DNA from: a virus | Lineage: Duplodnaviria > Caudoviricetes | Direction: 5' to 3' (one strand) | Virus record (IMG/VR): IMGVR_UViG_3300026484_000465 | Span: 1-56,421 of that record | DNA: 56,421 nt | In this document: piece by piece, positions 4,831 through 56,421 of the stretch | How positions within the stretch are numbered: position 1 is the stretch's first letter | Layout of the letters: each line of letters starts with the position of its first letter | Translations under genes and position numbers: made by a program | Notes under the pieces: generated by a model | Told to the model about the DNA's origin: nothing | What the model saw: only the letters and a program-made list of their open reading frames with translations | The model's database searches: none

Positions 4831-4913
4831 TACAAAAAATAATCTTATAATTAATATTTCATTTCTATAAAACATTTTTTTATGCTATAATTAACAAAAA
4901 AAAGGATTTATAT

Positions 4914-10051: not shown

Positions 10052-11184
10052 TGAGCTGTTGTTCGTCTAGGGATTTGTATTGCACGAATGATTATAATGG
10101 ATTTATAGTTTTAAAGCCTGATAAATTTACAGTTAAAGGGGTATATTTTTCTGGGTATGAGGCAAATGGAGTAGAAACGGCAAATGGTTTTATTTTTTCA
10201 GCAGGAAAAGATGGTGTATTTGGAGGTGTTGTAAAAAATGATGAATTTAATGCTATTTTTAATGTTTCTATAGGTGATTGGTTTCCTGATGTTGATGTTA
10301 GTGAATGTAATATAGCTATGATAAAGGCTCTTCCTATAGCTATGGATAAGGTTTATATTTGTGTTATCGCATATAGTGGATATGATTTGTATTTTTACAG
10401 TAAAATAGTAAATGTTTTTACAATATTTAATAATTCAACTATAGAACTAAACAAGCAAGAAGAAATTAAGCCAATAGCAGAATATCAAGCAAATAGTGAT
10501 AACGAAGAAGTAATTGATGTAACATCTTCTATTGATAATAATTTTAACGTAGATGAAGCTAGAACTGTTATAATGGAAAAAATAAAGGATGATTTAGAAG
10601 ATATTTTTAACACAAATTTACCTTCTTTTATTGAATTAAAAACTATTTTTTCATTAGGCTCAAATGGAAGTATTGATGGTATACTGTATATGTTAGATGT
10701 TGATTGTCTAACTATAAAAAAAAGAAAAATATTTACAGATTTAGACATTAATGTGGGAGATAATATAGAAACTGTTAAAACATTAGAAAAGCCTATTTTT
10801 GTGCCCAATAAATATGCTTTCACTAATTTTGCCACATATGGATTAAGAAATGGTGCTTGTTCTCAAATATATAGTGTTGTTAAAAATTCAAATAAAAATA
10901 GTTTTCTGTATTTGTTTACGACAGATGAAATAACATTTTTTGGTTATTCGGACGAGAGCACTCTTGTTTATTGTAACACACAAAGCAAAGCAATGTTTTT
11001 TAAATGTGATGCAGATAAGGTAGATGAATTTAATATAGCCAACAATATTATTATAAATCCAAAAGATGGTGTTTATGCTAAAACTTTAAATGCACCCATA
11101 ACTTTACCGAGTGGAACATTGAAACAACAAGATGAAGATATTACTTTTATTAGTTGTTTTGATATTTATTTTAATTATAAATAA
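10051..11184 (+). CDS. Hypothetical tail-region protein
   Basis: 377-aa ORF, TAATG coupling. Confidence 0.55.
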   Translation: MSCCSSRDLYCTNDYNGFIVLKPDKFTVKGVYFSGYEANGVETANGFIFSAGKDGVFGGVVKNDEFNAIFNVSIGDWFPDVDVSECNIAMIKALPIAMDKVYICVIAYSGYDLYFYSKIVNVFTIFNNSTIELNKQEEIKPIAEYQANSDNEEVIDVTSSIDNNFNVDEARTVIMEKIKDDLEDIFNTNLPSFIELKTIFSLGSNGSIDGILYMLDVDCLTIKKRKIFTDLDINVGDNIETVKTLEKPIFVPNKYAFTNFATYGLRNGACSQIYSVVKNSNKNSFLYLFTTDEITFFGYSDESTLVYCNTQSKAMFFKCDADKVDEFNIANNIIINPKDGVYAKTLNAPITLPSGTLKQQDEDITFISCFDIYFNYK

Positions 11185-11195
11185 AAGGAGATTGT

Positions 11196-12845
11196 ATGTT
11201 GTCAGTACCTATGGAAGTTTATTTGGATTTTTCTTTAAGAAAAAAAGTAAATAGTATAAATATAAACGTAAACCAATTAAAGTCTCAAATATCAAACATG
11301 GATATTTTTTATTTATCTAATAGATTTAAACCTACTTCTGATGGAAGAGTGATAAATACTAAAATAGTAACAAACTCTACTTTTTTTATAAAATTTACAG
11401 ATGAAACAAATAATTTAAATTTTACAATGCTACGATACGCTTATTTTGGTAATGTTTTTGAAAGTGACTTTGAAACAATGTCTTTTACTCCACCAGACCC
11501 AGAGAATTATGCTAATTATTATGGGGATAAAGTTGTAGAGTTTGAAGAAGGGGATTGGCTTTATTTCGCTTATGTTCCTTTTGGAAGAAATATTATAGAG
11601 TTGAATGATGAGACTACTATTGAAACTTGTGGAACGCAAGGTAAAGTGTGGATAAAAAAAGGACAGGCATTTAAAAGATATGCTAGTATACCAAAAGTTC
11701 CTGAATTGTTTGCTATGGGACCATATAAAATAATGAAGTTAGTGATAGGATCAATGTGGGAAAAATATGGACCACAAAGTTATTCTGTGTCTATTTTTTC
11801 TCCAGATATGAAAGAAGTAGAAGAAACTGTTTATGAACTTATTCCTATGGATGATGTGCTTTCTTATATTAATAATACAGTTGCAACTACAGAAGGAGGT
11901 TTACATTTAGTGGATTGGAAAAATTCAGAAACTCCAATAAGAGTAAATGCCTCTATACAAACCGGAACACCTATAAGAAACTTAAAAAACAAATTAGTTT
12001 TAAGCAAAAGTGGATATATAAATATGAATCATATTGGACCAAAAATAAAAGAAGAATTTACTGTTCATATGAATTTCTCAGTATATAATACTAACCATAG
12101 AGGAACAATTCTTTTTGAAGCTGCTTATGGAATAGATGACTATGAAAATCAAACACATCATATTACAATATGGGCAAATAAAGATGGTTTTATTTGTTAT
12201 AACTGTAAATTTAATGATGAGTATGTAAATACAGGAGAGAAGTTACCTACAAACATCTACACAACAATGACTTTTGTTTTAGCTAATGTGCAGATTAATC
12301 CAGAAAAAATGGATGATAAAAAATATATGGGATTTATATTTATAAACGGAAGACAGATATGGCCTAAAGAAACATATCTAAACCCAGATGAAATACAAGT
12401 TTTAAGTAGAGGATATAAAGCGTATAGAACATATACTGATGTATGTATGAATTTAGAAGCAAATACAACAACAATGGCATATATAGATGCAAAAAGTTTA
12501 TGTATTAAAAAGTTACTAAAAGAATCAGGGTTTGTTTCTATTGAGACTTTAAATCAAATATATCAATTATATTTAAATGCACCATCTCCAACAAAAGTAG
12601 ATATAGATAAAGAATTTGCGATTGGAGACAATGATAAAACTACAATAAAAAAGTTATATTTTGGGCAAGATTCTTATGAAGATATTTTAGACCAAGAATA
12701 TTATTTTGAAGGTGAAATTTATGAAATTGTAGTATTAAACAGAGCATACACAAGAAGAGAAGTGGAAAATATTAATTTGATCTCATCATTAGGATATAGT
12801 GTGGTTGATATTTATTCGCAAGAAATAGAGAAAAAAGATGAATAA
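11196..12845 (+). CDS. LamG-like (concanavalin A-like lectin/glucanase) domain tail protein
   Basis: EFTVHMNF...FIFINGRQ...LYFGQ...YFEGEIYEIVVLNRAYT is the characteristic LamG-3 pattern. Confidence 0.75.
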   Translation: MLSVPMEVYLDFSLRKKVNSININVNQLKSQISNMDIFYLSNRFKPTSDGRVINTKIVTNSTFFIKFTDETNNLNFTMLRYAYFGNVFESDFETMSFTPPDPENYANYYGDKVVEFEEGDWLYFAYVPFGRNIIELNDETTIETCGTQGKVWIKKGQAFKRYASIPKVPELFAMGPYKIMKLVIGSMWEKYGPQSYSVSIFSPDMKEVEETVYELIPMDDVLSYINNTVATTEGGLHLVDWKNSETPIRVNASIQTGTPIRNLKNKLVLSKSGYINMNHIGPKIKEEFTVHMNFSVYNTNHRGTILFEAAYGIDDYENQTHHITIWANKDGFICYNCKFNDEYVNTGEKLPTNIYTTMTFVLANVQINPEKMDDKKYMGFIFINGRQIWPKETYLNPDEIQVLSRGYKAYRTYTDVCMNLEANTTTMAYIDAKSLCIKKLLKESGFVSIETLNQIYQLYLNAPSPTKVDIDKEFAIGDNDKTTIKKLYFGQDSYEDILDQEYYFEGEIYEIVVLNRAYTRREVENINLISSLGYSVVDIYSQEIEKKDE

Positions 12846-13632
12846 TCAATATATATTGCCTGTAAAAATAATACTTAATCCCCCAGATGTTTTTTATAAA
12901 GCAGTTTATTTTAAGCAATTTGACTACGTTAAAACTACTTACAAAACTTATAAACATTATTCTGGTATTAGTGCTGTTAGATTTCCTGGTTTTTACAACG
13001 AAGAAGATTTCAATGAGTTAAGAATAAAAGACACCTACCTAAAATGGAATAGAAGTAATTATGAAAGTGAAATTATAACATTTACAAATTTAGAAAAGTT
13101 AGCTAGTCAAAAGGTATTTTATGTTGAAAGAGCGATTTTTTTAAAGATAATAAAATATTTTAATTCAGCTTTTAAAGTAATTGATATAAAATATAGAGGT
13201 AAGAATATATTGTTTTTTAAAAGCAGACCTTTTACAAAGATAATAGAACCAAAAGCTACAGATGTGTTTTTAGAGAAAAAACAATGCATTGGATTGGATG
13301 TTAATTATATTGGAATTGATTTTTTAAATATGATTCAGATTAATAAATATAAGAATTACCGAATGTTTTCTATAAACAACAACACGAAGAGTAAAGTCTC
13401 TCCTAGTATAGTAAAAGAAGTAAAGCCTTTTCTGTTTGGAATAAACTTCAAAATAAAGAATATTTATGATAAAATACAAGAGTATCGTTCTAGTTATTTT
13501 ATAAATTTGGTTTACAAAGGAATTGATAATATAAACACAAAAGAAATAATTTTTAATCGTTTTATAAAAATTAAAACCTCTATAAAAATAAAAAAATATA
13601 TGGGGCCAACTCATTATTTAATTTTAAATTAA
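12838..13632 (+). CDS. Hypothetical basic (K/Y/I/F-rich) protein
   Basis: 264-aa ORF overlapping upstream stop. Confidence 0.5.
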   Translation: MNNQYILPVKIILNPPDVFYKAVYFKQFDYVKTTYKTYKHYSGISAVRFPGFYNEEDFNELRIKDTYLKWNRSNYESEIITFTNLEKLASQKVFYVERAIFLKIIKYFNSAFKVIDIKYRGKNILFFKSRPFTKIIEPKATDVFLEKKQCIGLDVNYIGIDFLNMIQINKYKNYRMFSINNNTKSKVSPSIVKEVKPFLFGINFKIKNIYDKIQEYRSSYFINLVYKGIDNINTKEIIFNRFIKIKTSIKIKKYMGPTHYLILN

Positions 13633-22023: not shown

Positions 22024-22063
22024 TAATTTTTTATGTTATAATTAAGAAAAAAAAGGAAAAAAA

Positions 22064-22567
22064 ATGACTTTTACTAACACAAGTAAAGCAGTTTTAGTGT
22101 TAAATGGTAGGTTAATAGATCCTAGTAAGTCTATTTTTGTAAGTGATGATAATTTAAAATCAAATGCTCACAAAATTCTTCAATATTGTGTTACTAATAA
22201 AGGTATTGTAAAAGATATTACAGGAAAACAAATGTCTGTTGAAGCACTTAAAGAATATATTAATTATAGTAGTGTATCAACAAAAAACGAACAAGTAGAA
22301 AAAGAAAAGGATGATTATCTTGATATACTTAAAGAAACTATTAAAGAGGAAGAAGCAAAAGAAAAGCCTGTCGTTGAAGTGGAAAAAGAAACTGTTAAAG
22401 TGGAAAAAGAAAAAGAAGAACCTGTTACTGAAGTAAAAGAGCCTGTTGTTGAAGAAACAAAAGAACCTGTTACTGAAGTAAAAGAGCCTGTTGTTGAAGA
22501 AACAAAAGAACCTGTTGTTGAAACTAAAAAAACTAATTCAAGAAAAACAACATCAAGAAGAAAATAA
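22064..22567 (+). CDS. Hypothetical protein with E/K/P/V-rich repeat tail
   Basis: Own TGtTATAAT promoter and RBS; KEPVTEVKEPVVEET repeats. Confidence 0.65.
   Translation: MTFTNTSKAVLVLNGRLIDPSKSIFVSDDNLKSNAHKILQYCVTNKGIVKDITGKQMSVEALKEYINYSSVSTKNEQVEKEKDDYLDILKETIKEEEAKEKPVVEVEKETVKVEKEKEEPVTEVKEPVVEETKEPVTEVKEPVVEETKEPVVETKKTNSRKTTSRRK
22416..22516 (+). repeat. 45-bp in-frame tandem repeat, about 2.2 copies
   Basis: AAGAACCTGTTACTGAAGTAAAAGAGCCTGTTGTTGAAGAAACAA begins at 22416, 22461 and partly 22506. Confidence 0.9.
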
Positions 22568-35377: not shown

Positions 35378-35421
35378 TTGACCATTTTGATTTATTATGA
35401 TAAAATAAACAAAAAAAAGGA
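35378..35421 (+). promoter_or_regulatory. Sigma70-type promoter plus RBS
   Basis: TTGACC (35378-35383), N17, TGa-TAAAAT (35401-35406), A-run, AAGGA. Confidence 0.75.
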
Positions 35422-35427
35422 AAGAAA

Positions 35428-35799
35428 ATGGATTTACTAAAAGTAGCAAACGACCCATATGCGAGTTATTTAACAAAAACAGCCGCGGTAATCAGTGATT
35501 TTGAACAAGGAAGAATTACAGCTGATGAAGCGTTTGGAGCAGCTCAAGAAATGGGGATTGCACCACAAGATTTAGTTGCAGCTCAAGAAGTTTTATTTAA
35601 AGAAGCTTCAGAAAGTGCTAGCCTTGAAAAAGTAGCATCAATTGTAGATGACCCTTATTGCACACCACTTGAAAAAGTAGCAGCGATTGTAGACGGTATT
35701 GCTGCAGGAACTGTTGATTATGATGCAGGAACTCAAGTTGCAGCTCAATTAGGATTTGATGCTCAAGACATGGAATATATCTACGCACAAACTCACTAA
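35428..35799 (+). CDS. Acidic Ala-rich protein with five L-x-K-x-A motifs, putative scaffold/core protein
   Basis: LLKVA, LTKTA, LFKEA, LEKVA, LEKVA in 123 aa; monocistronic. Confidence 0.6.
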   Translation: MDLLKVANDPYASYLTKTAAVISDFEQGRITADEAFGAAQEMGIAPQDLVAAQEVLFKEASESASLEKVASIVDDPYCTPLEKVAAIVDGIAAGTVDYDAGTQVAAQLGFDAQDMEYIYAQTH

Positions 35800-38285: not shown

Positions 38286-39551
38286 ATGTTGAACACGAAC
38301 GACATATTAGATTCATTTAAAATGATAAATCCAAAAATAACACAAAAAACAATAGATAAATACATAACTATATATAAAAATAAGTATCCACAAATTGATT
38401 TCTCAAAACAAGAAAATATAGATTTTATTGTAATGCCTGTAGTTGCAGCTGAACTCACAATAGAATTAAACAAAAATAAATTATTATCAACTAATACAAT
38501 AGATGGTGTTATAAACTCAAATATGACAGCAGATGAAAAACTTTCGGCATTAAAAGCATATGCTAAATTAATAGGCTTTAAACCTATTTCTAAATCGTGG
38601 GAAAATTTATATAATGAAATTATTCAGTTTACACAAAACAATTGGTACAATTTAAAAACACCTATTGCCAATTTCATTTTAAACAAATTTAATTATATTG
38701 AAAATATATATATAGCTGACAGTAATTCTTCAGAAATGGTAAGAAATAGGGTTTATTATATTCAAATACCTGGTATGAAGATAAACACATTTGAATTATC
38801 AGACAATAATCAAACTAATTTATTTAATTATGCTTTCTCTATAGATGATTATGAAAAATACAAAGCAGCAAAAGAAGGAGGTTTTTTTAGTTTACCTAGT
38901 TGTATAGATTTATACTTATTTACAGAAATAAAAGAAAGCACTTTAAAAGTAACCCCTGTTGATAATTATTTTTCTTTAAAAGAAGGTTATTATGTTAGTG
39001 TAGAATGTGATGAACATCAAATAATCCATTCAAATTTTAATGATAAAAATGTTGATGGAATTATTCTTTGTAAACCAAGATTTTATGTTGATACAGATGA
39101 AGAAATAGAAATCAGAATAAAAGAATACATTTTACCCGATAAAGATGAAATAAAAATAGACGAGCTAGTTACTACATCTGATATTTTAATAAAAGCACCT
39201 TATCCAATTTTTATCTCGCTACTTTGTTATAGTTCAGAAAAATATTCTTCTTCTGATAAAGAAAATATGAAAAATATTTTAAATGAATACCTTAAGTCAA
39301 AACATAGAAATCCTAAAGAAATATCTTTAAAAGATATATCCAATGTATTATTAAGCAATAATTATAATGTAGACTTACAGCCAAAAGTGAATATAGAACT
39401 GTATCCTTATATAAATTATCAAGTTAAAAAAGAAGCAATTTTCCCATTAACAAAAAAAGACTACAGATCAAATAGTGCTGATTTGTATAACCAAATTTCA
39501 AACAATACATCTGTATTCTATATAAAGGATATAAATGTTATACCAGAATAA
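38286..39551 (+). CDS. Putative baseplate wedge (J-like) protein
   Basis: IYIADSNSSEMVRN...CIDLYL and C-terminal alpha/beta pattern resemble J-like proteins; recalled similarity only. Confidence 0.45.
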   Translation: MLNTNDILDSFKMINPKITQKTIDKYITIYKNKYPQIDFSKQENIDFIVMPVVAAELTIELNKNKLLSTNTIDGVINSNMTADEKLSALKAYAKLIGFKPISKSWENLYNEIIQFTQNNWYNLKTPIANFILNKFNYIENIYIADSNSSEMVRNRVYYIQIPGMKINTFELSDNNQTNLFNYAFSIDDYEKYKAAKEGGFFSLPSCIDLYLFTEIKESTLKVTPVDNYFSLKEGYYVSVECDEHQIIHSNFNDKNVDGIILCKPRFYVDTDEEIEIRIKEYILPDKDEIKIDELVTTSDILIKAPYPIFISLLCYSSEKYSSSDKENMKNILNEYLKSKHRNPKEISLKDISNVLLSNNYNVDLQPKVNIELYPYINYQVKKEAIFPLTKKDYRSNSADLYNQISNNTSVFYIKDINVIPE

Positions 39552-41307
39552 TCAAAATAGTATATTGTTTTATTCCTTGTTGGGAGATTATTATATATAT
39601 ATGTATAAAAAAAATGAAAAAAGTGACTGTATAAATACAGGGACATCTATTTTACTTGAAGAAATATTTGAAGACACTTCACATATAATAAATAGTAGTT
39701 TTTTATATAAAAATACAACATCTTTGTTTTTTATAGGAACAATAGAGTATATTGATAGTAATACAGTTAGATACTTTGATATTAATGGGAAAGAAATAAA
39801 CCCAACATCTGTATATATATTAAATAGAGAGAATGATATTATTTTTAATACTTTAGAACAAAATGAAATAATAAAATACTTACAAAAAAATAAACTTTCA
39901 TCATCTCTTATTTACTATACAAAAGAACAAAAACTTAATGTAGATGAAATAGCTACTATGTTTAATGTAACAGATGTAGATGTAAGTAAGTTTATTGCAT
40001 ATTTAATGTATAAAATGATTCAATATAATGTTTATAATAAAACACTAGTCAATAATTTAATAGCGATATATTTTAATACTCCATTCTGTTTAACAGAAAA
40101 AGAAAAAATATTAAAATATCAAGATGGAAAAGTTATTACAGATGTGAATGAATATGAAATAATTCATGATGTATATATAAAGAAAGAAGGTGATATTAAA
40201 TTTGGAGAACCTTTATATTATATATCTAAGATTAACAATTCAAATTCTAGTGTTATCAATAATATTGTCGATAAAATGTTTTATATTGATAACTATTCAA
40301 ATGCTTTTTATTTGAATAAGTTAAAAACATATGTAACATCTACTTTTCTTAATGCTAGTATATCTGTTGATGTACTTATTCAGAATCCAGAAAAAGGAAC
40401 CGTATTAGCAAATATTTTTAAAAATATTTCCTACATAGATGCTTCTTTAAATACTTACAGAGATGAAGAAGAAGAAATTGGAATTTCACTTAAAAGTGAT
40501 TTAAAGTTAATAGAAAAAGGATTGTTTGAAGCAAAAGAGACCACAATAATAACAATACATTATTATGATAAAAATATTAATGCTATTACATTATTGGATG
40601 AAAAACTTAAAGTTATAGAAAAAGGGAAAGCAGATACATTTGAAACTGAACTCAAGAAAGGTGTGTCTCTAGAAAAAAATGGAATAGATGCAATAGGAGA
40701 AGATAAAAATAAAGAATATGCAAAAGAAAATTTATTAAGTATTGAAAATTCAAAATTAACAGCATTATGGGAAAAATTTAATTTAAAAAATTTAATAGAA
40801 AAAGGTGTTAAAAAAATTATTTATAGTGATACTTTAAAATACCCAAAAAACGATAATTTAAAATACAAGTATATTATTACTCCTACATATAATGTTATCG
40901 AAAAGTATATAGAAAACATTAGTTATTTTGCTTTTGATTTTACCACATTACCTACTGATGATATTTTAACAAAAATATATAACATTAACACCTCACATAC
41001 TTATGAAACATTAAAAAAACAAGGTTTTGTTGAAAAAAGTGAAAGTAACAAAATGAAAGGGAAAGAAGCATTAAAATATTTATCATTATCTCTTTTTAGT
41101 GGAACAGAATTAACTAAAAATAAGACTGTTATTGATAGGTCTCTTTTAAGAACTAGAGATACATTGGGAGGAGATGTTCGTTTAAATAAAGAGGAGACTA
41201 ATAATCTATTATCATCAAATAAATTAAGCAAAAAGATTTCTAATGTATTTATACAAAAAGATGAATTAATAATGGACAGTAATACACTAATAGACGAAAA
41301 AAAATGA
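39535..41307 (+). CDS. Putative baseplate wedge protein
   Basis: LIAIYFNTPF...VITDVNEY...GDIKFGEPL; coupled to J-like gene. Confidence 0.4.
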   Translation: MLYQNNQNSILFYSLLGDYYIYMYKKNEKSDCINTGTSILLEEIFEDTSHIINSSFLYKNTTSLFFIGTIEYIDSNTVRYFDINGKEINPTSVYILNRENDIIFNTLEQNEIIKYLQKNKLSSSLIYYTKEQKLNVDEIATMFNVTDVDVSKFIAYLMYKMIQYNVYNKTLVNNLIAIYFNTPFCLTEKEKILKYQDGKVITDVNEYEIIHDVYIKKEGDIKFGEPLYYISKINNSNSSVINNIVDKMFYIDNYSNAFYLNKLKTYVTSTFLNASISVDVLIQNPEKGTVLANIFKNISYIDASLNTYRDEEEEIGISLKSDLKLIEKGLFEAKETTIITIHYYDKNINAITLLDEKLKVIEKGKADTFETELKKGVSLEKNGIDAIGEDKNKEYAKENLLSIENSKLTALWEKFNLKNLIEKGVKKIIYSDTLKYPKNDNLKYKYIITPTYNVIEKYIENISYFAFDFTTLPTDDILTKIYNINTSHTYETLKKQGFVEKSESNKMKGKEALKYLSLSLFSGTELTKNKTVIDRSLLRTRDTLGGDVRLNKEETNNLLSSNKLSKKISNVFIQKDELIMDSNTLIDEKK

Positions 41308-41313
41308 AACAAA

Positions 41314-41358
41314 TTGCAAAATAAAATATTTTATGATACAATAAACTAAAAAAAAGGA
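41314..41358 (+). promoter_or_regulatory. Sigma70-type promoter plus RBS
   Basis: TTGCAA (41314-41319), N17, TGa-TACAAT (41337-41342), A-run, AAGGA. Confidence 0.7.
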
Positions 41359-41365
41359 TTAACAG

Positions 41366-41770
41366 ATGAGAGCATTTGAACTTATCAAAACTGCAGGTGC
41401 AGAATATGGATACAACGATCAAGACAGTGAGGGATTATCTCCAGCAGCTAAAGCAGCAATTGCAGCAGGACTTCTTACAGCAGGTGGAGCAGGATTAAAA
41501 TATGGTGGTCCTAAATTAGCAGATCACATGATGGGTAAAATTGACAGTTTAGCTGATGATAGTGAAAAAATGAAAAAAATGTTAGCAAAGAAAAAAGGTG
41601 ATAAAGAACTTTATGAAAATGCTAGTAAGGCTAAAGAAGCTTTAAAAGCAAAATGGCAAAAATTAAAAGACATTGGTGAACACAAACATGGTGGAAAAGC
41701 ACTTATTGGTGGAGGTGTTACAACTGCAGCTCTTGCCGGAACAGATTACTACCAAAGAAATAGAGGGTAA
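41366..41770 (+). CDS. Gly/Ala-zipper protein with LIKTA leader, paralog of 4367..4801
   Basis: MRAFELIKTA; GLSPAAKAAIAAG vs GLNTAEKAAIASAG; both end QRxRG/QRRG. Confidence 0.7.
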   Translation: MRAFELIKTAGAEYGYNDQDSEGLSPAAKAAIAAGLLTAGGAGLKYGGPKLADHMMGKIDSLADDSEKMKKMLAKKKGDKELYENASKAKEALKAKWQKLKDIGEHKHGGKALIGGGVTTAALAGTDYYQRNRG

Positions 41771-41800
41771 CCTCTCTTTTCTCTTCTTCTATATTTTCTA
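41762..41800 (+). terminator. Intrinsic terminator overlapping stop codon
   Basis: AGAGG-gtaa-CCTCT hairpin then pyrimidine tract. Confidence 0.6.
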
Positions 41801-41856
41801 CTTACTTCTTTTAATAAAATCAAAATTATGCTACAATAAATAAAAAAAGGATTACA

Positions 41857-42318
41857 ATGAATTCGAAAAGTTACTTTTTACTTAAAACAGCTGATGACAA
41901 TAATAATGGTGTCGGAACAGGGACTATTGCAGGAGGTGCTTTGGCATTAGGTGGGCTTGGGAGTATGGGATACGGACATAATTTAATTAATAAAGCTACA
42001 CCTGATACTCCACTATTTTCAAAAGGAAATCAACTTGGTACATTAGGATATGGTGCTTCAAATATCCAGCAAGCTAAAGCAAGTGGGGAAGCAAACACAA
42101 AAGCCATTAATGATTTTGTTGAGGGTCATGGTGGAAAAGAAAAATTTGATGTTAACAAGCTAAATGAAGTAGAAAAAGGGAAATACAATAAAATGTTAAC
42201 AGATGGTGAAAATATAGCTAATCTAGGAAAAGGTTCTAAATTTATGCATTATGGAAAAATTGGCGGACTACTTGGTGGCGGAATGATGTTAGGGTCAATG
42301 TTAACCAATAATAATTAA
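41857..42318 (+). CDS. Glycine-zipper protein with LLKTA leader
   Basis: MNSKSYFLLKTA; GTIAGGALALGGLG and GGLLGGGMMLG; TGcTACAAT promoter. Confidence 0.7.
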   Translation: MNSKSYFLLKTADDNNNGVGTGTIAGGALALGGLGSMGYGHNLINKATPDTPLFSKGNQLGTLGYGASNIQQAKASGEANTKAINDFVEGHGGKEKFDVNKLNEVEKGKYNKMLTDGENIANLGKGSKFMHYGKIGGLLGGGMMLGSMLTNNN

Positions 42319-42330
42319 AAAGGATATAAA

Positions 42331-42585
42331 ATGAAGATAGAACAAATTTCTGAACTATTAGAAAAAACAGCTGCTCATATAGAGATGATTGAGAATGAAA
42401 ACAACATGTTAAGAAAGAAATTAGAAGAAAGTATTTCTGCAGTTAATTTAAACAAAGAAGCTTCTTTTGATTTTTCAGACACAGCGAATGATGACTATGG
42501 TTCTTTGGGGCAACCTTCTAATTATTCCCCGAGCAATCAAATTTCTTCTAGTCAAAAATTAGAAGAATTCTTAAATAATTTATAA
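42331..42585 (+). CDS. Small coiled-coil protein, putative scaffold-associated
   Basis: LEKTA and LNKEA motifs; two genes upstream of capsid. Confidence 0.55.
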   Translation: MKIEQISELLEKTAAHIEMIENENNMLRKKLEESISAVNLNKEASFDFSDTANDDYGSLGQPSNYSPSNQISSSQKLEEFLNNL

Positions 42586-42672
42586 AAAAACTATCTATAA
42601 ATAAGAGCATTTCTTATTTTTGTTTTTTTTGTATAAAATAATGGTAATAAAACCAAAAAAAAGGATAAGTAG

Positions 42673-43059
42673 ATGAAGAATATTGATATTGTAAGAGGTT
42701 ATAGAACCTTCAGTCATGAAGACTTATATGATGCTGACGCAACTGTAACAATCGTGCCAGGAGATATTATAGGCCTTAATGGAAACAAAATAACATTAGA
42801 AAAAACGCATAAAGAAGCTGGAATAGCTCTTGAATCAAACAAAGATATTGCTGGTAATAAACCAAGTGGGAAAATTCCAGTATGTGTTAGTAATTTTGTT
42901 GTAAGATTTTATAGACCAGTTCCAGATGAAGTTAATTTGGGTGATCCTGTTACAGTTATTGATGGAAAGCCATCTAAAACAGACGATGATCATACAGTAA
43001 TTTGGGGATATGTTACAAAAATAGACGAAACATCTTTTGATGTTAGAGTAAATTATTAA
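42673..43059 (+). CDS. Putative head decoration/cement protein
   Basis: 128-aa beta-rich, IVPGDII...GIALE...GKIPV...LGDPVTVIDGK...WGYVT; immediately upstream of capsid gene. Confidence 0.65.
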   Translation: MKNIDIVRGYRTFSHEDLYDADATVTIVPGDIIGLNGNKITLEKTHKEAGIALESNKDIAGNKPSGKIPVCVSNFVVRFYRPVPDEVNLGDPVTVIDGKPSKTDDDHTVIWGYVTKIDETSFDVRVNY

Positions 43060-43071
43060 AAAGGATAAAAC

Positions 43072-44007
43072 ATGGGTATTAATGTAGAAACTCCAGTAAT
43101 TCAACAAAACACAGGGTTAATTAAAGCAGCTTATGCTGGTGGTGACCTTTTAAAACAAGCTATGGATAACAGTACATACTTTATTAGAGATAAAGTAAGA
43201 GAACTTGGTTTTGCTAGAAAAGTAATTGAACCTATTTTTGTTACAAGTGCAGATTTAGACAGAGTTCCAAACAATGAGCAACCTGCTATCATCTTAGAAA
43301 AAGATATCGAAAGTAGAGGGATGACAGTGCCATTCAGAGGGCAAGGAGAACAAAGATATTGGGAAAGAGAAGACATGGTTGTTAATTTCCAAAAAATTGA
43401 ATCAGAAAGAATTAACAAATCTAAATTCGAAATGATGACTTCTAAAACTCCATATACTGAAGTTCTTAAAAAAAGAATTGTTGAAGAGGTTCAAAAAGTT
43501 GAAGATGAAACTTTAATGAACGGTTTCAATGCTATCATAGAGAAAGCAGAAGAAGAAGCTCCTGGTACACAATATCAAGAATTAGAGGGTGGATTAAGCA
43601 AAACAAACATTAAAATATTAATACAAATGCTTTCAAGATTAAAAATGATCCCGCCAACAGGACCAAAACCAAAAATCTTAATGACACAAAATCTAAAATT
43701 AGAATTAATTGAATTAGGAATGATTGAAATTGGTGATTCTAATGTTGGAAAATATTGGAATGAAGGTGTAGTTGGAGTAGATAGATTATTTAATGTCCCT
43801 GTAGTATCTACAATTAAAAATGATTTAGTAAAAGATAATGAAATGTTTATTGTTGCTCCTCAAGATTACTTTGGAAGATTCTTTATTTTACAAGATCACA
43901 CAATGGTAATCAAAACAGAAGCTGATATGATGAATATGTGGACATATGCAGCTATGGGTATGGGATTCGTTAATACAAAAGGTGTATGTAAAGTTACATT
44001 ATCTTAA
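43072..44007 (+). CDS. Major capsid protein (HK97-fold)
   Basis: 311 aa; FIRDKVRELGFARKVI, long backbone helix EVQKVEDETLM, KILMT, LFNVPVVST, terminal MGMGFVNTKGVCKVTL; strong hairpins downstream. Confidence 0.75.
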   Translation: MGINVETPVIQQNTGLIKAAYAGGDLLKQAMDNSTYFIRDKVRELGFARKVIEPIFVTSADLDRVPNNEQPAIILEKDIESRGMTVPFRGQGEQRYWEREDMVVNFQKIESERINKSKFEMMTSKTPYTEVLKKRIVEEVQKVEDETLMNGFNAIIEKAEEEAPGTQYQELEGGLSKTNIKILIQMLSRLKMIPPTGPKPKILMTQNLKLELIELGMIEIGDSNVGKYWNEGVVGVDRLFNVPVVSTIKNDLVKDNEMFIVAPQDYFGRFFILQDHTMVIKTEADMMNMWTYAAMGMGFVNTKGVCKVTLS

Positions 44008-44008
44008 T

Positions 44009-44062
44009 GTAACTCCTCTTTTGAGGATTACAAAATAATATACGTATTGTTTTGTAATTTTT
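44009..44062 (+). terminator. Two overlapping hairpins after capsid gene
   Basis: GTAACTCCTC-tttt-GAGGATTAC and TTACAAAATAATA-tacg-TATTGTTTTGTAA followed by Ts. Confidence 0.6.
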
Positions 44063-44076
44063 AAAAAGGATAATGG

Positions 44077-45030
44077 ATGTTTTTTAACAATTCTCAAAGA
44101 TATGTTTCTATAGCAAAACAAATTATTAACGAAATAAATCATGGGGGAGATAACCCAGAAGAATTATTAAATAAGTATGCTAAAGAATACAATTTAAATA
44201 ATAATATGAAACAAAGAGTTGTAGAAGAATACAATGTAAATATGTTTTTAAGTAAATTAAAAGATGGTAATCACCAAGAGCATTATGTGTTATTGAATCC
44301 TGTTATTAATGAAACACAAAAATGGAATTCTATTATTGAGAAAAATAATAAAGAAAATGAGCATAAAAAGAATATGACCAAGACAGCCTTTTACAATGAA
44401 GAAGCTAATATTGTATTTAAAAACAATTCAATGGAATATGAGCATGACCCACTTTTAAATGGTTCTTTTTCTAACAAAACATTGGTAAGTTCTTTTGAGT
44501 ACGGGGACACCTCTGATTTACTTAAAAATGCTTCTTACAAAGAAAAACTCAGAGAAGAAGAAGGATTTAAAGAATTAGTAAAAACTGCTCATTATAAAGG
44601 TCATGAAGTTATAAATCAATTAGCAAATGATCTAACTAAAGTAGCAAATATTTCAACAGGAGCTACAAAAACCATAATTTATGATTTAATTAAAGAAGGG
44701 CATGAGGATATTGCTAATACTGTTATGGAAAATTGCAAATATAAACCAAACGAAATACTCGGGGCAAAAATGACAGATGGTATATTTGAACAAGATTTAC
44801 CTCTATTAAAAACATCTCAAGAACTTATAAAAGAAGCAACTATAAGTAAACTAATTATGAGAGTAATATCAGAAAAAGGTATGAACCATATCGGAAGTGC
44901 TTTAAATAAAATAAAAACTATGGCAGGGCCTAAAAATAGAGCAAAAATATATATGGCTTATGTAATGAATAAATTTTTTACAGAAAAAAAACCTGGTGCA
45001 TTACATAATGACTTTATTCAAAATGCTTAA
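44077..45030 (+). CDS. Putative head core/scaffold protein with multiple K-x-A motifs
   Basis: MTKTA, LLKNA, LVKTA, LTKVA, LIKEA (plus LLKTS); follows capsid gene. Confidence 0.55.
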   Translation: MFFNNSQRYVSIAKQIINEINHGGDNPEELLNKYAKEYNLNNNMKQRVVEEYNVNMFLSKLKDGNHQEHYVLLNPVINETQKWNSIIEKNNKENEHKKNMTKTAFYNEEANIVFKNNSMEYEHDPLLNGSFSNKTLVSSFEYGDTSDLLKNASYKEKLREEEGFKELVKTAHYKGHEVINQLANDLTKVANISTGATKTIIYDLIKEGHEDIANTVMENCKYKPNEILGAKMTDGIFEQDLPLLKTSQELIKEATISKLIMRVISEKGMNHIGSALNKIKTMAGPKNRAKIYMAYVMNKFFTEKKPGALHNDFIQNA

Positions 45031-45230: not shown

Positions 45231-45758
45231 TTACTGCTCTTTTTTGCTGTTATTGACTGCTTTGTGTGCAAAATAAGCTTGAGCTGCCCCTAAAGTGCCT
45301 ATTCCACCCATAGTTTGTCCTTGTAATTTAGCTCTTTGTTTTAACATATTTTTAATTTTATCTTTACTTTGGCCTAATTCCTTAAGAATTTCCTCTTCTG
45401 ATGAATCTCCAAGTTCTTTTGTAGCTTGTTTGTAGTCACGAATACGGTGTAACCCTTTTCCTAAAGCACCTGCCATTACACCTATTCCCGTACTTCTGTT
45501 TATTTCATCATCACTAGACCCTATTTTTTTTGCCAATAATGGAGCAGCTATAGACCCTCCTAATAAACCTAATTCAGTTGGTAAAGAAAAAGTCTTATAT
45601 TCACCTTTACCCTGTAAAACATTAACAAGATAAGGAATGTTTTCTTGCAATAGAACCCCTGACGCAACTCCACCAGCTGCAGAAAGTCCATCACCTATCA
45701 TCTTTTTTTTATCAGAATCTTTTTTGTCCGCTGTCTTAATTAAATTAAAACTTTTCAT
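45231..45758 (-). CDS. Glycine-zipper protein with LIKTA leader
   Basis: MKSFNLIKTA; four Gly-rich hydrophobic segments. Confidence 0.7.
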   Translation of the reverse strand: MKSFNLIKTADKKDSDKKKMIGDGLSAAGGVASGVLLQENIPYLVNVLQGKGEYKTFSLPTELGLLGGSIAAPLLAKKIGSSDDEINRSTGIGVMAGALGKGLHRIRDYKQATKELGDSSEEEILKELGQSKDKIKNMLKQRAKLQGQTMGGIGTLGAAQAYFAHKAVNNSKKEQ

Positions 45759-51735: not shown

Positions 51736-52497
51736 ATGAATTCTACTTCTTTTTTATACAAAAAGGCGGGGCTTTATGAACAGCAATCCAATAGAGAACT
51801 GCCTCCCATAAAAACAACTCCACCAGAAGAAAAACAAAGTATTTTGCAAAACATTAAAAATAAATTTAATAAAGCAACTGACCTTGTTGCAACAAAAGCA
51901 GAAAATGGAATATTAAGACAACAACTTAAAAGTCAAACTGATAATGTTGACGAATGGAAAAGCAGACATGCAAATGTGTTTGAAGAACTAAATAAAACAA
52001 AAACTTCTTTGGATGATTTAGAAGCTTCTAAAATGGAATTAGAGGCTAGGCTAAAAAGACAGATTGGGGCATTAAGAAGATTAAAACATGAAGATAAAAT
52101 TCAAAACAAACAACAAGTTATGGCATTGGAAAATCAAATAAATCATTTATCAGGTCAAATATCTGCTCACTCAAAAACTATTTCAAACTACAAACAACAA
52201 TTAAAGTCAGCAGAGGAGATTATTAATGATAATACTCAAGATATAATACAGAAAGAAAATACAATAAAAACATTAAAAACAACTCTTGATGGACACAAAG
52301 AAGAAATAGTTGGTTTAAATAAAAGATTGGATGAACATAAGAACACTATAGAAGAGCTAACTAAAACTCTTGGAAAAACAGAAACTTCAAATAAGTATCT
52401 TAAATGGGGAGCAGGAATTGCTATCCCAACAGTAGGAATGGGAGGATATTTAATGGGTAAATCAAGTAATTCAACAGGAGGAAATAATGCTAACTAA
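51736..52497 (+). CDS. Coiled-coil protein with LYKKA leader and C-terminal Gly-rich membrane segment
   Basis: MNSTSFLYKKA; long heptad region; WGAGIAIPTVGMGGYLMG. Confidence 0.65.
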   Translation: MNSTSFLYKKAGLYEQQSNRELPPIKTTPPEEKQSILQNIKNKFNKATDLVATKAENGILRQQLKSQTDNVDEWKSRHANVFEELNKTKTSLDDLEASKMELEARLKRQIGALRRLKHEDKIQNKQQVMALENQINHLSGQISAHSKTISNYKQQLKSAEEIINDNTQDIIQKENTIKTLKTTLDGHKEEIVGLNKRLDEHKNTIEELTKTLGKTETSNKYLKWGAGIAIPTVGMGGYLMGKSSNSTGGNNAN

Positions 52498-53152
52498 ATA
52501 CATTGACGGAGATGCTTACTTAGTAACGCCAGCACATGCTAAACATTGTAATGGTAGTTGTGATTGGTTACAAAAAGAAGCTAGTGTAACACCAGAATCA
52601 GTACATTTTTTTGACAATTTAAAACCAAAACCAGACCATGTGTATCTATTAACAATAGCAATGACAGCAGGAGAATTTTTTGGAGCTAACAAAAATGGAG
52701 ACTATTTTAGAGAACAGGATCTAAAAAAATATTACAAAGATTTTAAAGGTGCTGGAGTTTTCTGGAATCACGACAACAAAGATATGAGTAAATCAAGTGG
52801 AAAAGTTATTGAGGCTTTCTACAATGAACATATGCATAGAGTTGAATTAATTATAGAGTTCCATAAAGATAAAGCTAGATATATTCCTAGTTATATAAAA
52901 GATAAAAAACCTATAGCAGTTTCAATGGGATTAAAAACATCATCGGAAGTATGTTGTATATGTGGTAATGTTACAAGAAATAGTTATGCTACCAGATGTA
53001 GTCATCTTAAATATCAAATGAATCAAGTTCTTGATGATGGAAGAAAAGTTTATGCTATAAGTAATACACCTCTTAAGATATTTGATATTTCTGTTGTTTT
53101 CAATCCAGCTGACAGAACTGCTTATACTTTATACACAAAATCAGGAACTTAA
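52487..53152 (+). CDS. Prohead maturation protease (HK97/assemblin-like) with Cys/His zinc-binding insert
   Basis: NKNGDYF, VFWNHD (His), GKV, AVSMG (Ser), CCICG...CSH, FDISVVFNPAD. Confidence 0.75.
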   Translation: MLTKYIDGDAYLVTPAHAKHCNGSCDWLQKEASVTPESVHFFDNLKPKPDHVYLLTIAMTAGEFFGANKNGDYFREQDLKKYYKDFKGAGVFWNHDNKDMSKSSGKVIEAFYNEHMHRVELIIEFHKDKARYIPSYIKDKKPIAVSMGLKTSSEVCCICGNVTRNSYATRCSHLKYQMNQVLDDGRKVYAISNTPLKIFDISVVFNPADRTAYTLYTKSGT

Positions 53153-53549: not shown

Positions 53550-53981
53550 ATGAATGCGAGTGAATTTATTAAGGTGGCCTCTAACAAAGACGTAGACAAA
53601 AGATATGACATAAATCCATATGATGTAGCAGAGTTAGCAGGAGCCGCGGGTACGGTAGGCGGGGCAGGGTATGCCGGATATAACCATATTAAAAAGCACA
53701 ATGATAGGGAAGCTATTAAAGAAAACATGTTAGAAAAAGCTTTAAAAAACAGTTCTGATAAAGAGAAAAAAAGCATTATGAAAGCTATTGAGCAAGATGC
53801 TGAAGATTACTTTAAAAACAAAACTGAAAATATTTTAAGCTCATACAAAGCCTCTGGGGTTGAAAAAGAATTTAAAGATTTAGCACAAAGAGAACATGGA
53901 ATGCCAAAAAAAATAGCATTAGGAAGTATGCTTGGTGGAGGCGCTGTTATGATTGGTTCTAACTTGATGAATGATGAATAA
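53550..53981 (+). CDS. Glycine-zipper protein with FIKVA leader
   Basis: MNASEFIKVA; LAGAAGTVGGAGYAG and IALGSMLGGGAVMIG; TGaTATAAT promoter. Confidence 0.7.
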   Translation: MNASEFIKVASNKDVDKRYDINPYDVAELAGAAGTVGGAGYAGYNHIKKHNDREAIKENMLEKALKNSSDKEKKSIMKAIEQDAEDYFKNKTENILSSYKASGVEKEFKDLAQREHGMPKKIALGSMLGGGAVMIGSNLMNDE

Positions 53982-54039: not shown

Positions 54040-54744
54040 ATGGCAGAGAACATCAAAGCAGAAGAAAATAATAAGGACGAAACACCTTTTATTATTGTAC
54101 ACCCCATGTCTATTGTTTTAAACAATATTTTGATTAAGTATACTTCTGAGCAAATAGAAAAATTAAGCAGCGAAGATTTGATAGAAGCTAAAATAAATTT
54201 AGAATTAAACCAAAACACTTTTATCAAAATGGAGTTAAAAAAAGAAACTGAAGATTTCTTTAAAACAGGTTCTATTGTAGCAGCAGGCACTTCTATTCCG
54301 TTAAGAAAAGAAATATTTGTTTTCCCTGACAATATTGGAGTAATGAGTTTTAGAGTGTTTTATAAATTAATGGAGCTACACAGTAAAGAAACAGACAAGA
54401 AAGATGTTAATATTGAAGATTATATTAATAAAAAAGAGTTGCTTCAAGCAGCAAAAGAAAATAAAGTTGTAGAGCTACTAAAATCTAAGCCTATTTTAAT
54501 TCAAGTAACTGAAGATATGTTTGTTGTTATAGGAAAAATGACAAAAGTAACTTGGGATATTTTATCAGCAGAAAATAATGTAGTAACAACAATTAGACTA
54601 TACAATAATCCTCAAGACTTTATTCCAGGATATGCATTATTAACATCACAATCATTAGGAATGATAAAAGATGTAATTGATAATGGTGGTATTGTTGAGC
54701 TAGAAAAAGATTTTGCTGAGTTATTAAAACCTAACAACGGATAA
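54040..54744 (+). CDS. Hypothetical protein
   Basis: Promoter, RBS, 234 aa. Confidence 0.6.
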   Translation: MAENIKAEENNKDETPFIIVHPMSIVLNNILIKYTSEQIEKLSSEDLIEAKINLELNQNTFIKMELKKETEDFFKTGSIVAAGTSIPLRKEIFVFPDNIGVMSFRVFYKLMELHSKETDKKDVNIEDYINKKELLQAAKENKVVELLKSKPILIQVTEDMFVVIGKMTKVTWDILSAENNVVTTIRLYNNPQDFIPGYALLTSQSLGMIKDVIDNGGIVELEKDFAELLKPNNG

Positions 54745-54747
54745 ATA

Positions 54748-55182
54748 ATGAGAGGGATATCTTATGTGTATATCATAAAGATGACACAAGATGAATTAAA
54801 TGACTATGTTGTAAAAGCAAAAGAAGCAGGGTTAATTTACCATCCTGCTCATTTTGTTTACTCTATGAAGAACACAGAAGGGGAAGTTTTTGAATATAAA
54901 TTTAGACCTCTAAGCGAAAACAATGGTTTATCAAGAGATTCGATAATTTCTAGAAGATCAGTAGGTATAGTTATTGTTACTCCATATGTAATGGAAATTC
55001 CACATAAAACATATGAGAGTGTTGCAAGAAAAATAAAAAATATTTTATTAGACATAGGTTTACCAAAACCTGAACTTGTAACAGATTTTAAAGACACAAA
55101 TAAACAAATAAATGTTGGCACTATGTATAATGAAATAAAACAAAGTGGCAATGATTTTATTATATTAAATAAAGGATTTTAA
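54748..55182 (+). CDS. Hypothetical protein
   Basis: Coupled to upstream gene. Confidence 0.6.
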   Translation: MRGISYVYIIKMTQDELNDYVVKAKEAGLIYHPAHFVYSMKNTEGEVFEYKFRPLSENNGLSRDSIISRRSVGIVIVTPYVMEIPHKTYESVARKIKNILLDIGLPKPELVTDFKDTNKQINVGTMYNEIKQSGNDFIILNKGF

Positions 55183-55410
55183 ATGTTAGTTTTATTAAAA
55201 ACAGAAGATGGTAGAGATAAAGCAGTTAATTTAGATAATGCAGAGTTTGAAGTCCAACCTTCAGAAACAGATGCTAGTATGATGCATTTTAAAATATTTA
55301 AAAATAACGAATTAGTGATTGAGAGTATGATAAGGGAAGAAACTTATCACAATATATTAGAAACTCTTCAAGGACAGAACAAAATAATTATAGCTAACCA
55401 TAAGAATTGA
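55183..55410 (+). CDS. Hypothetical protein
   Basis: AAGGA RBS, 75 aa. Confidence 0.6.
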   Translation: MLVLLKTEDGRDKAVNLDNAEFEVQPSETDASMMHFKIFKNNELVIESMIREETYHNILETLQGQNKIIIANHKN

Positions 55411-55461
55411 TTATACATACAAGCCTTTTTTTAGTATAATTACTAAAAAAAAGGACTTTGT

Positions 55462-55679: not shown

Positions 55680-56421
55680 ATGGGTTTTACGAAATTAGAT
55701 TCTTCTCCTGAAGAAAAAAACAAAGAAACAATAAAAGAAATTATTCCTATTATAGAAAAACATTTTCCTTTAAGCGGGAATTTTTATACATTAGATTTAA
55801 AAAATTTTACAGTAAAAGAAAATAATGCTTCTATGAATGAAATTAAAAATACTATATTAAAAGGTGGAAGTATTTTTAATGAGGTTTACGCTGATGCTAC
55901 ACTTATAAAAAATCAAAATAAAAAAGTTATTGATAGAAAGAAAAAAGTATTAGTGATGAAAATACCAGCTTTTACTAAGAAGCTAAGTTATATTATTGAT
56001 GGAAATTCTTTTACTATTCCTAATCAACAAAGATTAAAGCCTGGTGCTTATTTAGTGGAAAGAAAGAATGGTGAGATTGTAACAATTTTCAACACTAAAG
56101 AAAATAAACAATTTAAGTTAAAATTAAATCCAGAAACAGGTATTTTTTATTTTGACATAGGTAGTAGCAACATACCAGCTGTATCCATTCTAAAAGCAAT
56201 GGGAATGAGTGATACCGAAGGAGAACAAGCATTAGGTAAAGAATTATATAAAACAAATATAGAAAAAAGTTCTCCAGATGATCTTGATAAATTCTTAAAC
56301 AAATCTTACTCTTTACCAAAAGAGATAAGTGATAAAACTCCTCAAGAAAAAATTAAATATTTATTTAGCAAAATGAAAGTCGACCCCGATGTAACACATA
56401 GAAACTTTAATGTAAAAACAG
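55680..56421 (+). CDS. Phage-encoded multi-subunit RNA polymerase beta-like subunit, N-terminal part (runs off right end)
   Basis: Not in ORF track. Open from ATG 55680 to the end; MKIPAFTKKLSYIIDGNSFTIPNQQRLKPGAY parallels RpoB IPLMT..GTFVING.ERV.VSQL.RSPGV; IPAVSILKAMG parallels LPATIILRAL. Confidence 0.75.
   Translation, partial: MGFTKLDSSPEEKNKETIKEIIPIIEKHFPLSGNFYTLDLKNFTVKENNASMNEIKNTILKGGSIFNEVYADATLIKNQNKKVIDRKKKVLVMKIPAFTKKLSYIIDGNSFTIPNQQRLKPGAYLVERKNGEIVTIFNTKENKQFKLKLNPETGIFYFDIGSSNIPAVSILKAMGMSDTEGEQALGKELYKTNIEKSSPDDLDKFLNKSYSLPKEISDKTPQEKIKYLFSKMKVDPDVTHRNFNVKT

Follow-up and report, generated by a model that had tools for sequence, protein, structure and literature searches.

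The question raised by the right-hand end of this stretch of phage DNA is what kind of gene begins there and is cut off after a few hundred codons. The stretch analysed, hereafter the window, is the 56,421-bp contig IMGVR_UViG_3300026484_000465 of a tailed phage (Caudoviricetes); it makes up the entire IMG/VR record, with a completeness of 35% according to CheckV. In the list of its open reading frames (ORFs), a frame of 247 full codons (55680-56420, plus strand), whose ATG at 55680 is preceded by the Shine-Dalgarno-like sequence GGTGA, runs off the sequence end. As the record has no sequence beyond the window, the gene is truncated where the contig stops. A preliminary description, made from the letters alone, had taken the frame for an RpoB-like gene, that is, one for the beta subunit of a multi-subunit RNA polymerase (RNAP), standing among virion genes. 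We find that the frame is real and that it almost certainly represents the opening 247 codons of a gene about 1440 codons long, in which beta is fused to the N-terminal part of beta-prime (beta-prime-N). The earlier identification thus stands in so far as the gene is phage-encoded and beta-like, of the cellular type; it falls short in that this is not a plain beta, since the frame is the start of a beta + beta-prime-N fusion.

The identity of the fragment was established through P0001, a protein of 1438 residues that is 97% identical to it over 247 of 247 residues. In a phmmer search of the PDB, P0001 matched a cyanobacterial beta subunit (8syi_C; E-value 3.9e-61, query residues 60-972), the region of the fragment aligning, via P0001, to beta residues 73-270. 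The fragment codes for the N-terminal part of beta domain 1 (the protrusion) and most of beta domain 2 (the lobe). The two stretches in which RpoB-like motifs had been seen both align with conserved motifs of bacterial RNAP beta: the domain-1 motif IPAFTKKLSYIIDGNSFTIPNQQRLKPGAY contains the family-invariant residues P96, G108, Q116, R118, L119 and G122 (columns of alignments A1 and A2), and the domain-2 motif IPAVSILKAMGM contains the invariant L171 and G175. Identity of the family to bacterial beta is about 24-31%. Rpb2 domain profiles, which the preliminary description had suggested as a check, gave a sub-threshold match to the fragment alone (Rpb2 domain 2, E 0.0087, 16.2 bits versus a cut-off of 21.7) and found both Rpb2_3 and Rpb2_6 in full-length P0001; a PHROGs search with the fragment returned no match. 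From 43 short homologues, AlphaFold2 modelled the 247 residues encoded in the window itself with a predicted local distance difference test score (pLDDT) of 92.4 and a predicted template modelling (TM) score of 0.61. All 50 PDB entries among the Foldseek matches listed for this model are RNAP beta chains, headed by 4kbj_B, the isolated B1-B2 domains of Mycobacterium tuberculosis beta (E 2.7e-10, probability 1.00). As the fragment breaks off partway through the two-domain module, these matches reach TM scores of only about 0.35.

Because public contigs continue past its last base, the window stops where the assembly of a microdiverse population broke off, rather than where a gene ends. Contigs extend beyond the final base in three of the four runs (X1, X2 and X4) compared over the last 2.4 kb, and one public contig of 929 nt goes 565 nt past it; the same 2.4 kb are covered by many short contigs, with coexisting variants that are 90-99% alike. 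A twin of the window, the 74.7-kb contig G001 (L004; IMGVR_UViG_3300026484_000382), is 97% identical to it and ends at exactly the window's last nucleotide. P0001, which comes from an 84.7-kb contig and is identical to G001 across the 247 residues, reads through that stop point. The shared endpoint is probably one branch point of the assembly graph, caused by strain variants. When viral contigs were scanned with a single protein, either the fragment or P0001, G001 was the sole contig recovered. The window-end stretch is present in six public runs of three studies, the runs X2 and X6 being labelled 'hydrothermal vent metagenome', and in run X2 variants at a depth ratio of about 2:1 coexist across this region. 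At the opposite end, positions 1-120 and 121-240 of the window form an exact tandem duplicate, which may be an assembly artefact or a real repeat.

In P0001, Pfam domains of both catalytic subunits follow one another in a single chain: the fork domain Rpb2_3 at residues 344-408 (E 3e-6) and Rpb2_6, which holds the catalytic barrel and binds the hybrid, at 580-901 (E 1.3e-38), both past the window's end, then Rpb1_1 at 1077-1218 and Rpb1_2 at 1288-1371. The beta-prime part matched the PDB at E 1.3e-38 (phmmer; query 1067-1412 onto chain residues 183-523), and its Mg-binding loop reads AGDFDGD at residue 1345. The preliminary description had advised looking for a beta-prime gene with NADFDGD; a motif of that type does exist, but instead of lying in a separate gene it sits in P0001's own polypeptide. 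D[FY]DGD was present in all of the first eight full-length homologues and preceded by NA in one of them (P0002), and the fusion protein of G002, a complete phage genome related to the window, carries NADYDGD. The fusion product consists of a compact bacterial-type beta of about 985 residues followed, almost without a linker, by about 440 residues of the beta-prime N-terminal part; in the junction alignment, the C-terminal helix of beta passes into the first conserved element of beta-prime within about 10 residues. Beta-prime-N spans the double-psi beta-barrel with the Mg-binding D[F/Y]DGD and has its C-terminus 86-90 residues past this catalytic motif. It aligns to E. coli beta-prime 175-545 and to residues 191-529 of the 624 of cyanobacterial gamma. 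The four-cysteine zinc-binding segment of beta-prime (about 33 residues) is missing in all six family rows of the junction alignment, and P0001 has zero cysteines.

A profile scan of IMG/VR yielded 79 viral loci, which were classed by ORF architecture; 71 are complete and eight are cut by contig or locus ends. Beta is fused to beta-prime-N in 70 of the 71 complete homologues, of which 64 end after the barrel and six include the whole of beta-prime. The standard arrangement, a beta + beta-prime-N ORF of 1434-1501 residues, occurs at 56 loci, 54 of them with the strict motif 86-90 residues from the C-terminus, and 46 of the 56 have a separate ORF for the C-terminal part of beta-prime (beta-prime-C) in the flank, mostly about 1 kb downstream. 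Eight loci have a beta + beta-prime-N ORF with Cys-rich inserts (1785-1911 residues), six have beta plus the entire beta-prime in one ORF (2036-3006 residues), and at a single locus, L111, the two parts are in different ORFs. The fusion is present in all seven members of the window's subclade. The insert-bearing ORFs are those of L068, L070, L094, L095, L096, L100, L101 and L105, to which L106 (1759 residues, 5'-cut) can be added; the inserts measure about 300-450 residues and bring 7-13 cysteines into a protein that otherwise has none, and they may represent inteins or mobile elements of another kind within the RNAP gene. The fully fused clade comprises L046, L073, L076, L099 and L103 (2036-2100 residues), L135 (2217 residues) and L058 (3006 residues), the last with about 900 extra C-terminal residues.

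Searching with the fragment alone gave 1102 cluster representatives (50% identity) at E ≤ 1e-3 and 828 at E ≤ 1e-10, and at least 481 IMG/VR stretches match the family, on contigs of up to 235 kb. Among the best 150 of the 1102 representatives, 95 have at least 1300 residues: 31 show the strict motif and a short tail (84-103 residues in 28 of the 31), 29 the strict motif followed by at least 595 further residues, and 35 are without the strict motif, about 20 of these having a DxDGD variant where the motif would be expected. Of the 60 motif carriers among these 150 representatives, 22 have NA in front of the strict motif, and three of the 150 have a length like that of a stand-alone beta.

A tree was built from the beta part only (86 rows, 981 columns) by a quick maximum-likelihood search under LG+G4, with branch support from the Shimodaira-Hasegawa-like approximate likelihood ratio test only (values marked by an asterisk). 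ORFs of 1511-1999 residues (insert-bearing), those shorter than 1400 residues, open-ended ORFs and near-duplicates were left out. The bacterial rows come from the Candidate Phyla Radiation and Bacillota, and the sequences of the published metagenomic lineage mReC, to which we return below, were not included. One branch with a support of 100* has 58 family rows and L136 on one side and 26 bacterial rows and L138 on the other. A phylogeny had been proposed as a further check on the gene, and its outcome bears out a phage origin: the family branches apart from every one of the 26 bacterial beta subunits sampled, and phage genes flank it on either side. A group of seven, also at 100*, forms the window's subclade. 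When the tree is rooted on the bacteria, an assumed root, it places the fully fused forms as the sister group of the split forms taken together (99*), which tentatively suggests from these sequences that the fusion came first and the beta-prime split later. If true, this order runs in the reverse direction to the 'fragments fused into large subunits' scenario for phiKZ-type enzymes. L136 (Cloacimonadota bin, 134.6 kb), on a long branch sister to the whole family, encodes a beta of 1079 residues and beta-prime-N in separate ORFs and may be an unfused relative of the family. L138 (contig RGIG2320, 142 kb) groups with the bacteria, yet has a beta-prime-N ORF of 569 residues, perhaps because it uses an alternative genetic code, perhaps because its beta-prime is really split.

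A separate protein, of about 585-657 residues, carries the rest of beta-prime, with Rpb1 domains 4 and 5 and the region of the bridge helix and the trigger loop. In G002 it has 585 residues (Rpb1_5, E 4.6e-20), and its gene lies on the opposite strand to the fusion gene, at a distance of 26 kb; across G002, G003 and G004, all of the window's subclade, the distance is 25-36 kb. Beta-prime-C is not in the window or in its twin G001 (records 35% and 46% complete), because the gene lies at such a distance in G002. Exactly one Rpb2_6 match per genome was found in five of five complete or cultured genomes, which means a single RNAP set, and a search for the alpha subunit (PF01000) was negative in all five genomes, with 14 of 14 positive controls detected. 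Beta-prime-C of G002 heads a gene run (39290-44905, minus strand) encoding proteins of 585, 234, 775 and 260 residues (compare L122 and L212), a run that resembles gp216-gp219 of the cultured phage Arash (beta-prime-C, helicase, virion protein, small protein). The 260-residue protein has a sub-threshold Sigma70_r4 match and a weak match to Arash gp219, without Pfam support, and on these similarities is a candidate accessory or specificity factor.

As to the genome in which the gene resides, the window is a fragment (about 35% complete) of a phage genome of about 160 kb related to G002. The latter, 161,461 bp long with a 100-bp terminal repeat, is the nearest complete genome; by tblastn, 49 of the 96 window ORFs match it, in rearranged blocks with local synteny up to the RNAP gene. 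The counterparts in G002 of the three small genes listed in Table 1 lie between a portal homologue (10145-11968) and the fusion gene (starting at 13501). The 68-residue ORF that immediately precedes the RNAP gene, and is likely co-transcribed with it, had a weak tblastn match elsewhere in G002 (158321-158524) and no Pfam family above the cut-off. The assertion that the gene stands in a virion-gene context was borne out, as a major capsid protein and a head protease in the window were identified by homology to Arash gp226 and gp222. The capsid protein had no Pfam match, a PHROGs search with the 10 ORFs neighbouring the RNAP gene gave almost nothing, and no TerL was identified in the window. Four of the 96 window ORFs have tblastn matches in Arash and in the Vibrio phage D69, namely the major capsid protein, the head protease, a virion protein and the RNAP. 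A portal homologue lies within 10 kb of the RNAP gene at 14 of the 79 loci, and in Arash, D69 and G002 the RNAP gene directly follows portal-type genes. The G+C content is 0.26 at the RNAP gene and 0.23-0.33 over the rest of the window. Within the ORF 22064-22567, which encodes a 167-residue protein of the structural block, tandem repeats of 21/24 nt (22353-22541) code for a K-E-P-V-type peptide repeat. Members of the family occur in metagenome-assembled genome (MAG) bins of five phyla, among them Planctomycetota, Pseudomonadota, Chloroflexota and Cloacimonadota; assigning a host from these bins was rejected, the family contigs of 120-183 kb being read as mis-binned phage.

A promoter-like and ribosome-site module with the consensus TAtAAT-like hexamer (often with TG before it), 4-5 nt, A6-8, GGA, 4-12 nt and ATG recurs in the window; the copy nearest upstream of the RNAP gene is a perfect match (repeat family D2). 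The pattern was matched 15 times against 2.2 expected, a count that none of 100 shuffles reached, and 18 plus-strand gene starts in the window carry the A-run/GGA/ATG module, many of them belonging to structural-module genes. From this arrangement we infer a candidate promoter with a very short leader, and its place upstream of the 68-residue ORF and the RNAP gene fits co-expression with virion proteins. As a feature of the whole lineage the module was rejected, G002 having one near-match. Most members of a set of small paralogous ORFs (134-175 residues) that start with M-x-x-F-x-L-I-K-T-A lie directly behind this module. They are probably what the preliminary description called the 'K-x-A system' and offered as a possible lineage hallmark, an idea that a narrow N-terminal motif test did not support: the window has four such ORFs, compared with 0.05 when N-termini were shuffled, while G002, Arash and D69 gave no match. 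Internal proteins of phage T4 carry capsid-targeting peptides, and by analogy the shared N-terminus of the K-x-A ORFs could be a targeting or processing signal.

Table 1. Features of the window that bear on the RNAP gene, its neighbourhood and the recurrent gene-start elements
Feature	Position	Strand	Details
RNAP fusion gene (predicted), 5' part	55680..56421	+	codons 1-247 plus one base; ATG start, no stop
Conserved beta domain-1 motif IPAFTKKLSYIIDGNSFTIPNQQRLKPGAY	55956..56051	+	residues 93-124; alignment of P0001 to 8syi_C
Conserved beta domain-2 motif IPAVSILKAMGM	56172..56205	+	residues ~165-176; opposite LSAQVLLKALGL (…LLKALGLSD) of 8syi_C
Small ORF, 68 residues	55462..55668	+	11 nt before the RNAP gene, same strand
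Promoter-like and ribosome-site module (TAGTATAAT, 4 nt, A8, GGA)	55426..55458 (55435-55455)	+	ends 7 nt before the ATG at 55462
Further copies of the module	4340-4360, 4886-4906, 22037-22057, 35401-35421	+	
Three small genes (234, 144 and 75 residues)	54040..55410	+	match G002 12048-12668, 12685-13104 and 13132-13338
Head maturation protease homologue	52487..53152	+	PHROG 18299, E 1.2e-11; 45% identity to N-terminal part of Arash gp222
Major capsid protein homologue	43072..44007	+	Arash gp226, 34% identity over full length, E 1e-45; G002, 69% identity
M-x-x-F-x-L-I-K-T-A ORFs	4367-4801, 41366-41770, 41857-42318	+	
M-x-x-F-x-L-I-K-T-A ORF	45231-45758	-	
Looser M-x-x-F-x-L-I-K-T-A matches	53550-53981, 35428-35799		

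We consider it probable that the gene belongs to a fused, two-polypeptide, alpha-less RNAP that is packaged in the virion and transcribes the phage genes independently of the host. A minimal RNAP core would consist of the fusion protein and beta-prime-C, and in it, we infer, the covalent link between beta and beta-prime would take over the assembly job of the bacterial alpha dimer. The enzyme would be synthesised with the virion proteins, packed into the capsid and delivered with the DNA, and phage genes could then be transcribed without the host polymerase. Promoter recognition would fall to phage sigma-70-like factors in some branches (Arash, D69) and to another factor in the window's branch. 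Towards virion packaging and early transcription by the fused enzyme, taken separately, we lean by a small measure. In Arash virions analysed by mass spectrometry, the homologue gp206 gave the most spectra (3516, with 1333 for the major capsid protein), and beta-prime-C (gp216, 1210), the helicase gp217 (1148) and the sigma factor gp10 (467) were also found; the authors suggest early transcription (PMC10585845; papers with a PMC number are cited here for the part of their text that was available). A more far-reaching proposal seems doubtful to us, namely that this is the most reduced cellular-type RNAP known, made of one or two polypeptides without alpha or the beta-prime zinc finger, with the covalent link replacing the alpha dimer, with one packaged enzyme for the entire transcription program and exchangeable phage-encoded specificity factors, and with fusion preceding split.

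Several observations pull the other way. The window covers 17% of the gene, and the fusion in its own genome is deduced from a 97% identical relative and from conservation across the family. Packaging rests on one distant relative, Arash, with 25% identity over the fragment, whose authors allow for carry-over of abundant enzymes into purified particles (PMC10585845, same part of the text). No portal homologue was found in the window. Sigma70_r2 was detected in none of five records of the window's subclade, and Sigma70_r4 gave sub-threshold matches only. Finally, the gene-start module resembles an extended -10 element, equally readable by a host sigma-70 holoenzyme. In a rival course of events, the same enzyme would be made after infection for middle and late genes and the host RNAP would serve the early genes, as with the phiKZ-type non-virion RNAP. 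In favour of this, a single RNAP set per genome must serve at least the later program, the TAtAAT-like hexamer of the window, often after TG, is usable by the host holoenzyme, a portal homologue is not next to the RNAP gene in the window, and contamination of virion preparations by abundant enzymes is conceded by the Arash authors (PMC10585845, as above). However, gp206 tops all Arash particle proteins in spectra, the major capsid protein included, and was found alongside beta-prime-C and sigma, and the RNAP gene stands right after portal-type genes in Arash, D69 and G002. Synthesis after infection alone therefore appears unlikely to us, although it deserves serious attention.

The two other explanations concern the gene itself. 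That this genome has a stand-alone beta with a separate beta-prime, as the preliminary description assumed and as the mReC paper words it, draws on the window ending at codon 247, so that the fusion is not directly visible, and on L111 (one of 71 complete loci) and L136 (the contig sister to the family), which have beta and beta-prime-N in different ORFs. We regard it as very improbable, because P0001 is fused, 97% identical over the whole fragment and identical there to the twin G001, because the whole subclade of seven is fused, and because so few of the best 150 representatives are of stand-alone-beta length. That the contig is chimeric or proviral and has a host rpoB at its edge would agree with RNAP beta being typically cellular and with the occurrence of family members in MAG bins of five phyla. 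This we consider hardly credible in view of the 100* branch separating the family from the 26 sampled bacterial beta subunits, the identity of about 24-31%, the fused architecture, the synteny with complete, terminally repeated phage genomes, a G+C content at the gene like that of the rest of the window, and MAG contigs that at 120-183 kb are phage-like. The reading we prefer is thus the fused phage enzyme.

Phage RNAPs of the cellular type are rare models of the minimal needs of a two-barrel polymerase. The phiKZ type does without alpha and yet comes in four to five pieces; the fused family goes the opposite way and joins the catalytic subunits. Because cultured members exist (Arash on Salmonella, the D69 type on Vibrio), the assembly of an alpha-less core, the packaging and ejection of a virion-delivered enzyme and promoter-specificity factors are directly testable, and these questions become accessible to experiment. 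Genes of the family are at present labelled merely 'subunit beta' or 'hypothetical protein'. The fused architecture of this very large and barely studied phage family appears to be undescribed so far: no description of a phage RNAP with beta fused to beta-prime-N was found in the open-access literature, including the available parts of PMC7824862, PMC7598289 and PMC12153180. The window itself contributes one truncated member. If the mReC phylogenies used such proteins, fusion and split affect how those deep-branching trees are to be read.

Among known phages, Arash (gp206 + gp216; OQ632216) and the Vibrio phages D69, D181 and D148 belong to the same family and have the architecture of P0001: a protein of 1525-1527 residues with Rpb2_3/Rpb2_6 and then Rpb1_1/Rpb1_2, plus one of 606-609 residues with Rpb1_4/5. 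The window's major capsid protein, its head protease and one structural protein have homologues in Arash and D69, each of which has a single RNAP set without alpha. These phages differ from the window in gene order and, with an identity of 25% over the fragment, in sequence; in addition, Arash (gp10 and gp196) and D69 encode sigma-70-family proteins, of which none was detected in the window's subclade. In GenBank and PMC10585845, gp206 is named 'subunit beta' and gp216 'beta' or 'beta-prime', and the available text does not mention a fusion.

The preliminary description had also placed this genome in or near a published metagenomic lineage of phages with deeply branching RNAPs. This corresponds to mReC, multimeric-RNAP-encoding Caudovirales from metagenomes with some contigs above 200 kb (Weinheimer & Aylward 2020, PMC7481178). 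Both have a cellular-type beta and beta-prime that fall outside Bacteria and an RNAP among the phage hallmark genes (PMC7481178, available part). The lineage was defined by beta and beta-prime of at least 800 residues each and by NADxDGD; fusion or split in mReC is unmentioned in that part of PMC7481178, which is also silent on whether both matches may sit on one protein. With its AGDFDGD, P0001 would not pass the NADxDGD filter. As to length, the fusion protein would answer for the beta and the beta-prime match in a single chain, whereas beta-prime-C (585-657 residues) would be too short. The mReC major capsid proteins matched PF07068 (Gp23) and TerL PF03237, with a capsid call in 8 of 97 contigs (same source). 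Here PF07068 was found in none of nine records (the window, G001, Arash, D69, G002, G006, G007, G008 and G009), a search run without a positive control, and PF03237 was above the cut-off in G002 only and weak in two of five. The metagenome Ga0180432, source of mReC1 and mReC3, holds a fused family member (L281), and more are in sister metagenomes; the three named mReC contigs are absent among the best 80 of 375 metagenome matches, and a contig from Ga0180432 is absent among the best 80 of at least 481 viral matches. On balance we are inclined to think that mReC is wholly or partly the fused family. Of the earlier placement, the part that stands is a clade distinct from the sampled bacterial RNAPs; the NADxDGD and PF07068 markers do not agree with it, and membership is therefore plausible but unproven.

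In the crAss-like giant virion RNAP and the YonO-type enzymes, both barrels are in one polypeptide, and the crAss type is virion-associated (as cited in the available part of PMC7481178), but these enzymes are without readily detectable similarity to cellular beta and beta-prime (PMC7481178). The fused family, in contrast, matches Pfam Rpb2 and Rpb1 and the PDB strongly.

Natural rpoB-rpoC fusions in Helicobacter and Wolbachia link beta covalently to beta-prime in the same order as in the phage fusion. Unlike the phage enzyme, these bacterial fusions, and likewise the split enzymes of cyanobacteria and plastids, have retained alpha, omega and the zinc finger. As for the break in beta-prime, that of the phages and the cyanobacterial gamma/beta-prime split both fall in the region behind the barrel (PMC7598289, available part). 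The two are nevertheless not at one site: with the alignment reaching gamma residue 529 of 624 and 28 query residues remaining, the phage chain stops about 65 residues short of the cyanobacterial gamma C-terminus.

The phiKZ/AR9-type enzymes share with the fused family a phage RNAP of cellular type without alpha, a beta-prime broken after the catalytic double-psi beta-barrel and the existence of a virion form (PMC7598289, PMC7824862, available parts); omega was not searched for in the fused family. In the phiKZ/AR9 type, beta is split into two or three polypeptides, nothing is fused, there are two paralogous sets (virion and non-virion) and no sigma (same sources), whereas the fused family has a whole beta joined to beta-prime-N, one set and, in some branches, sigma. 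It is also far more similar to bacterial RNAP than the phiKZ type is (E 1e-61 to a PDB beta).

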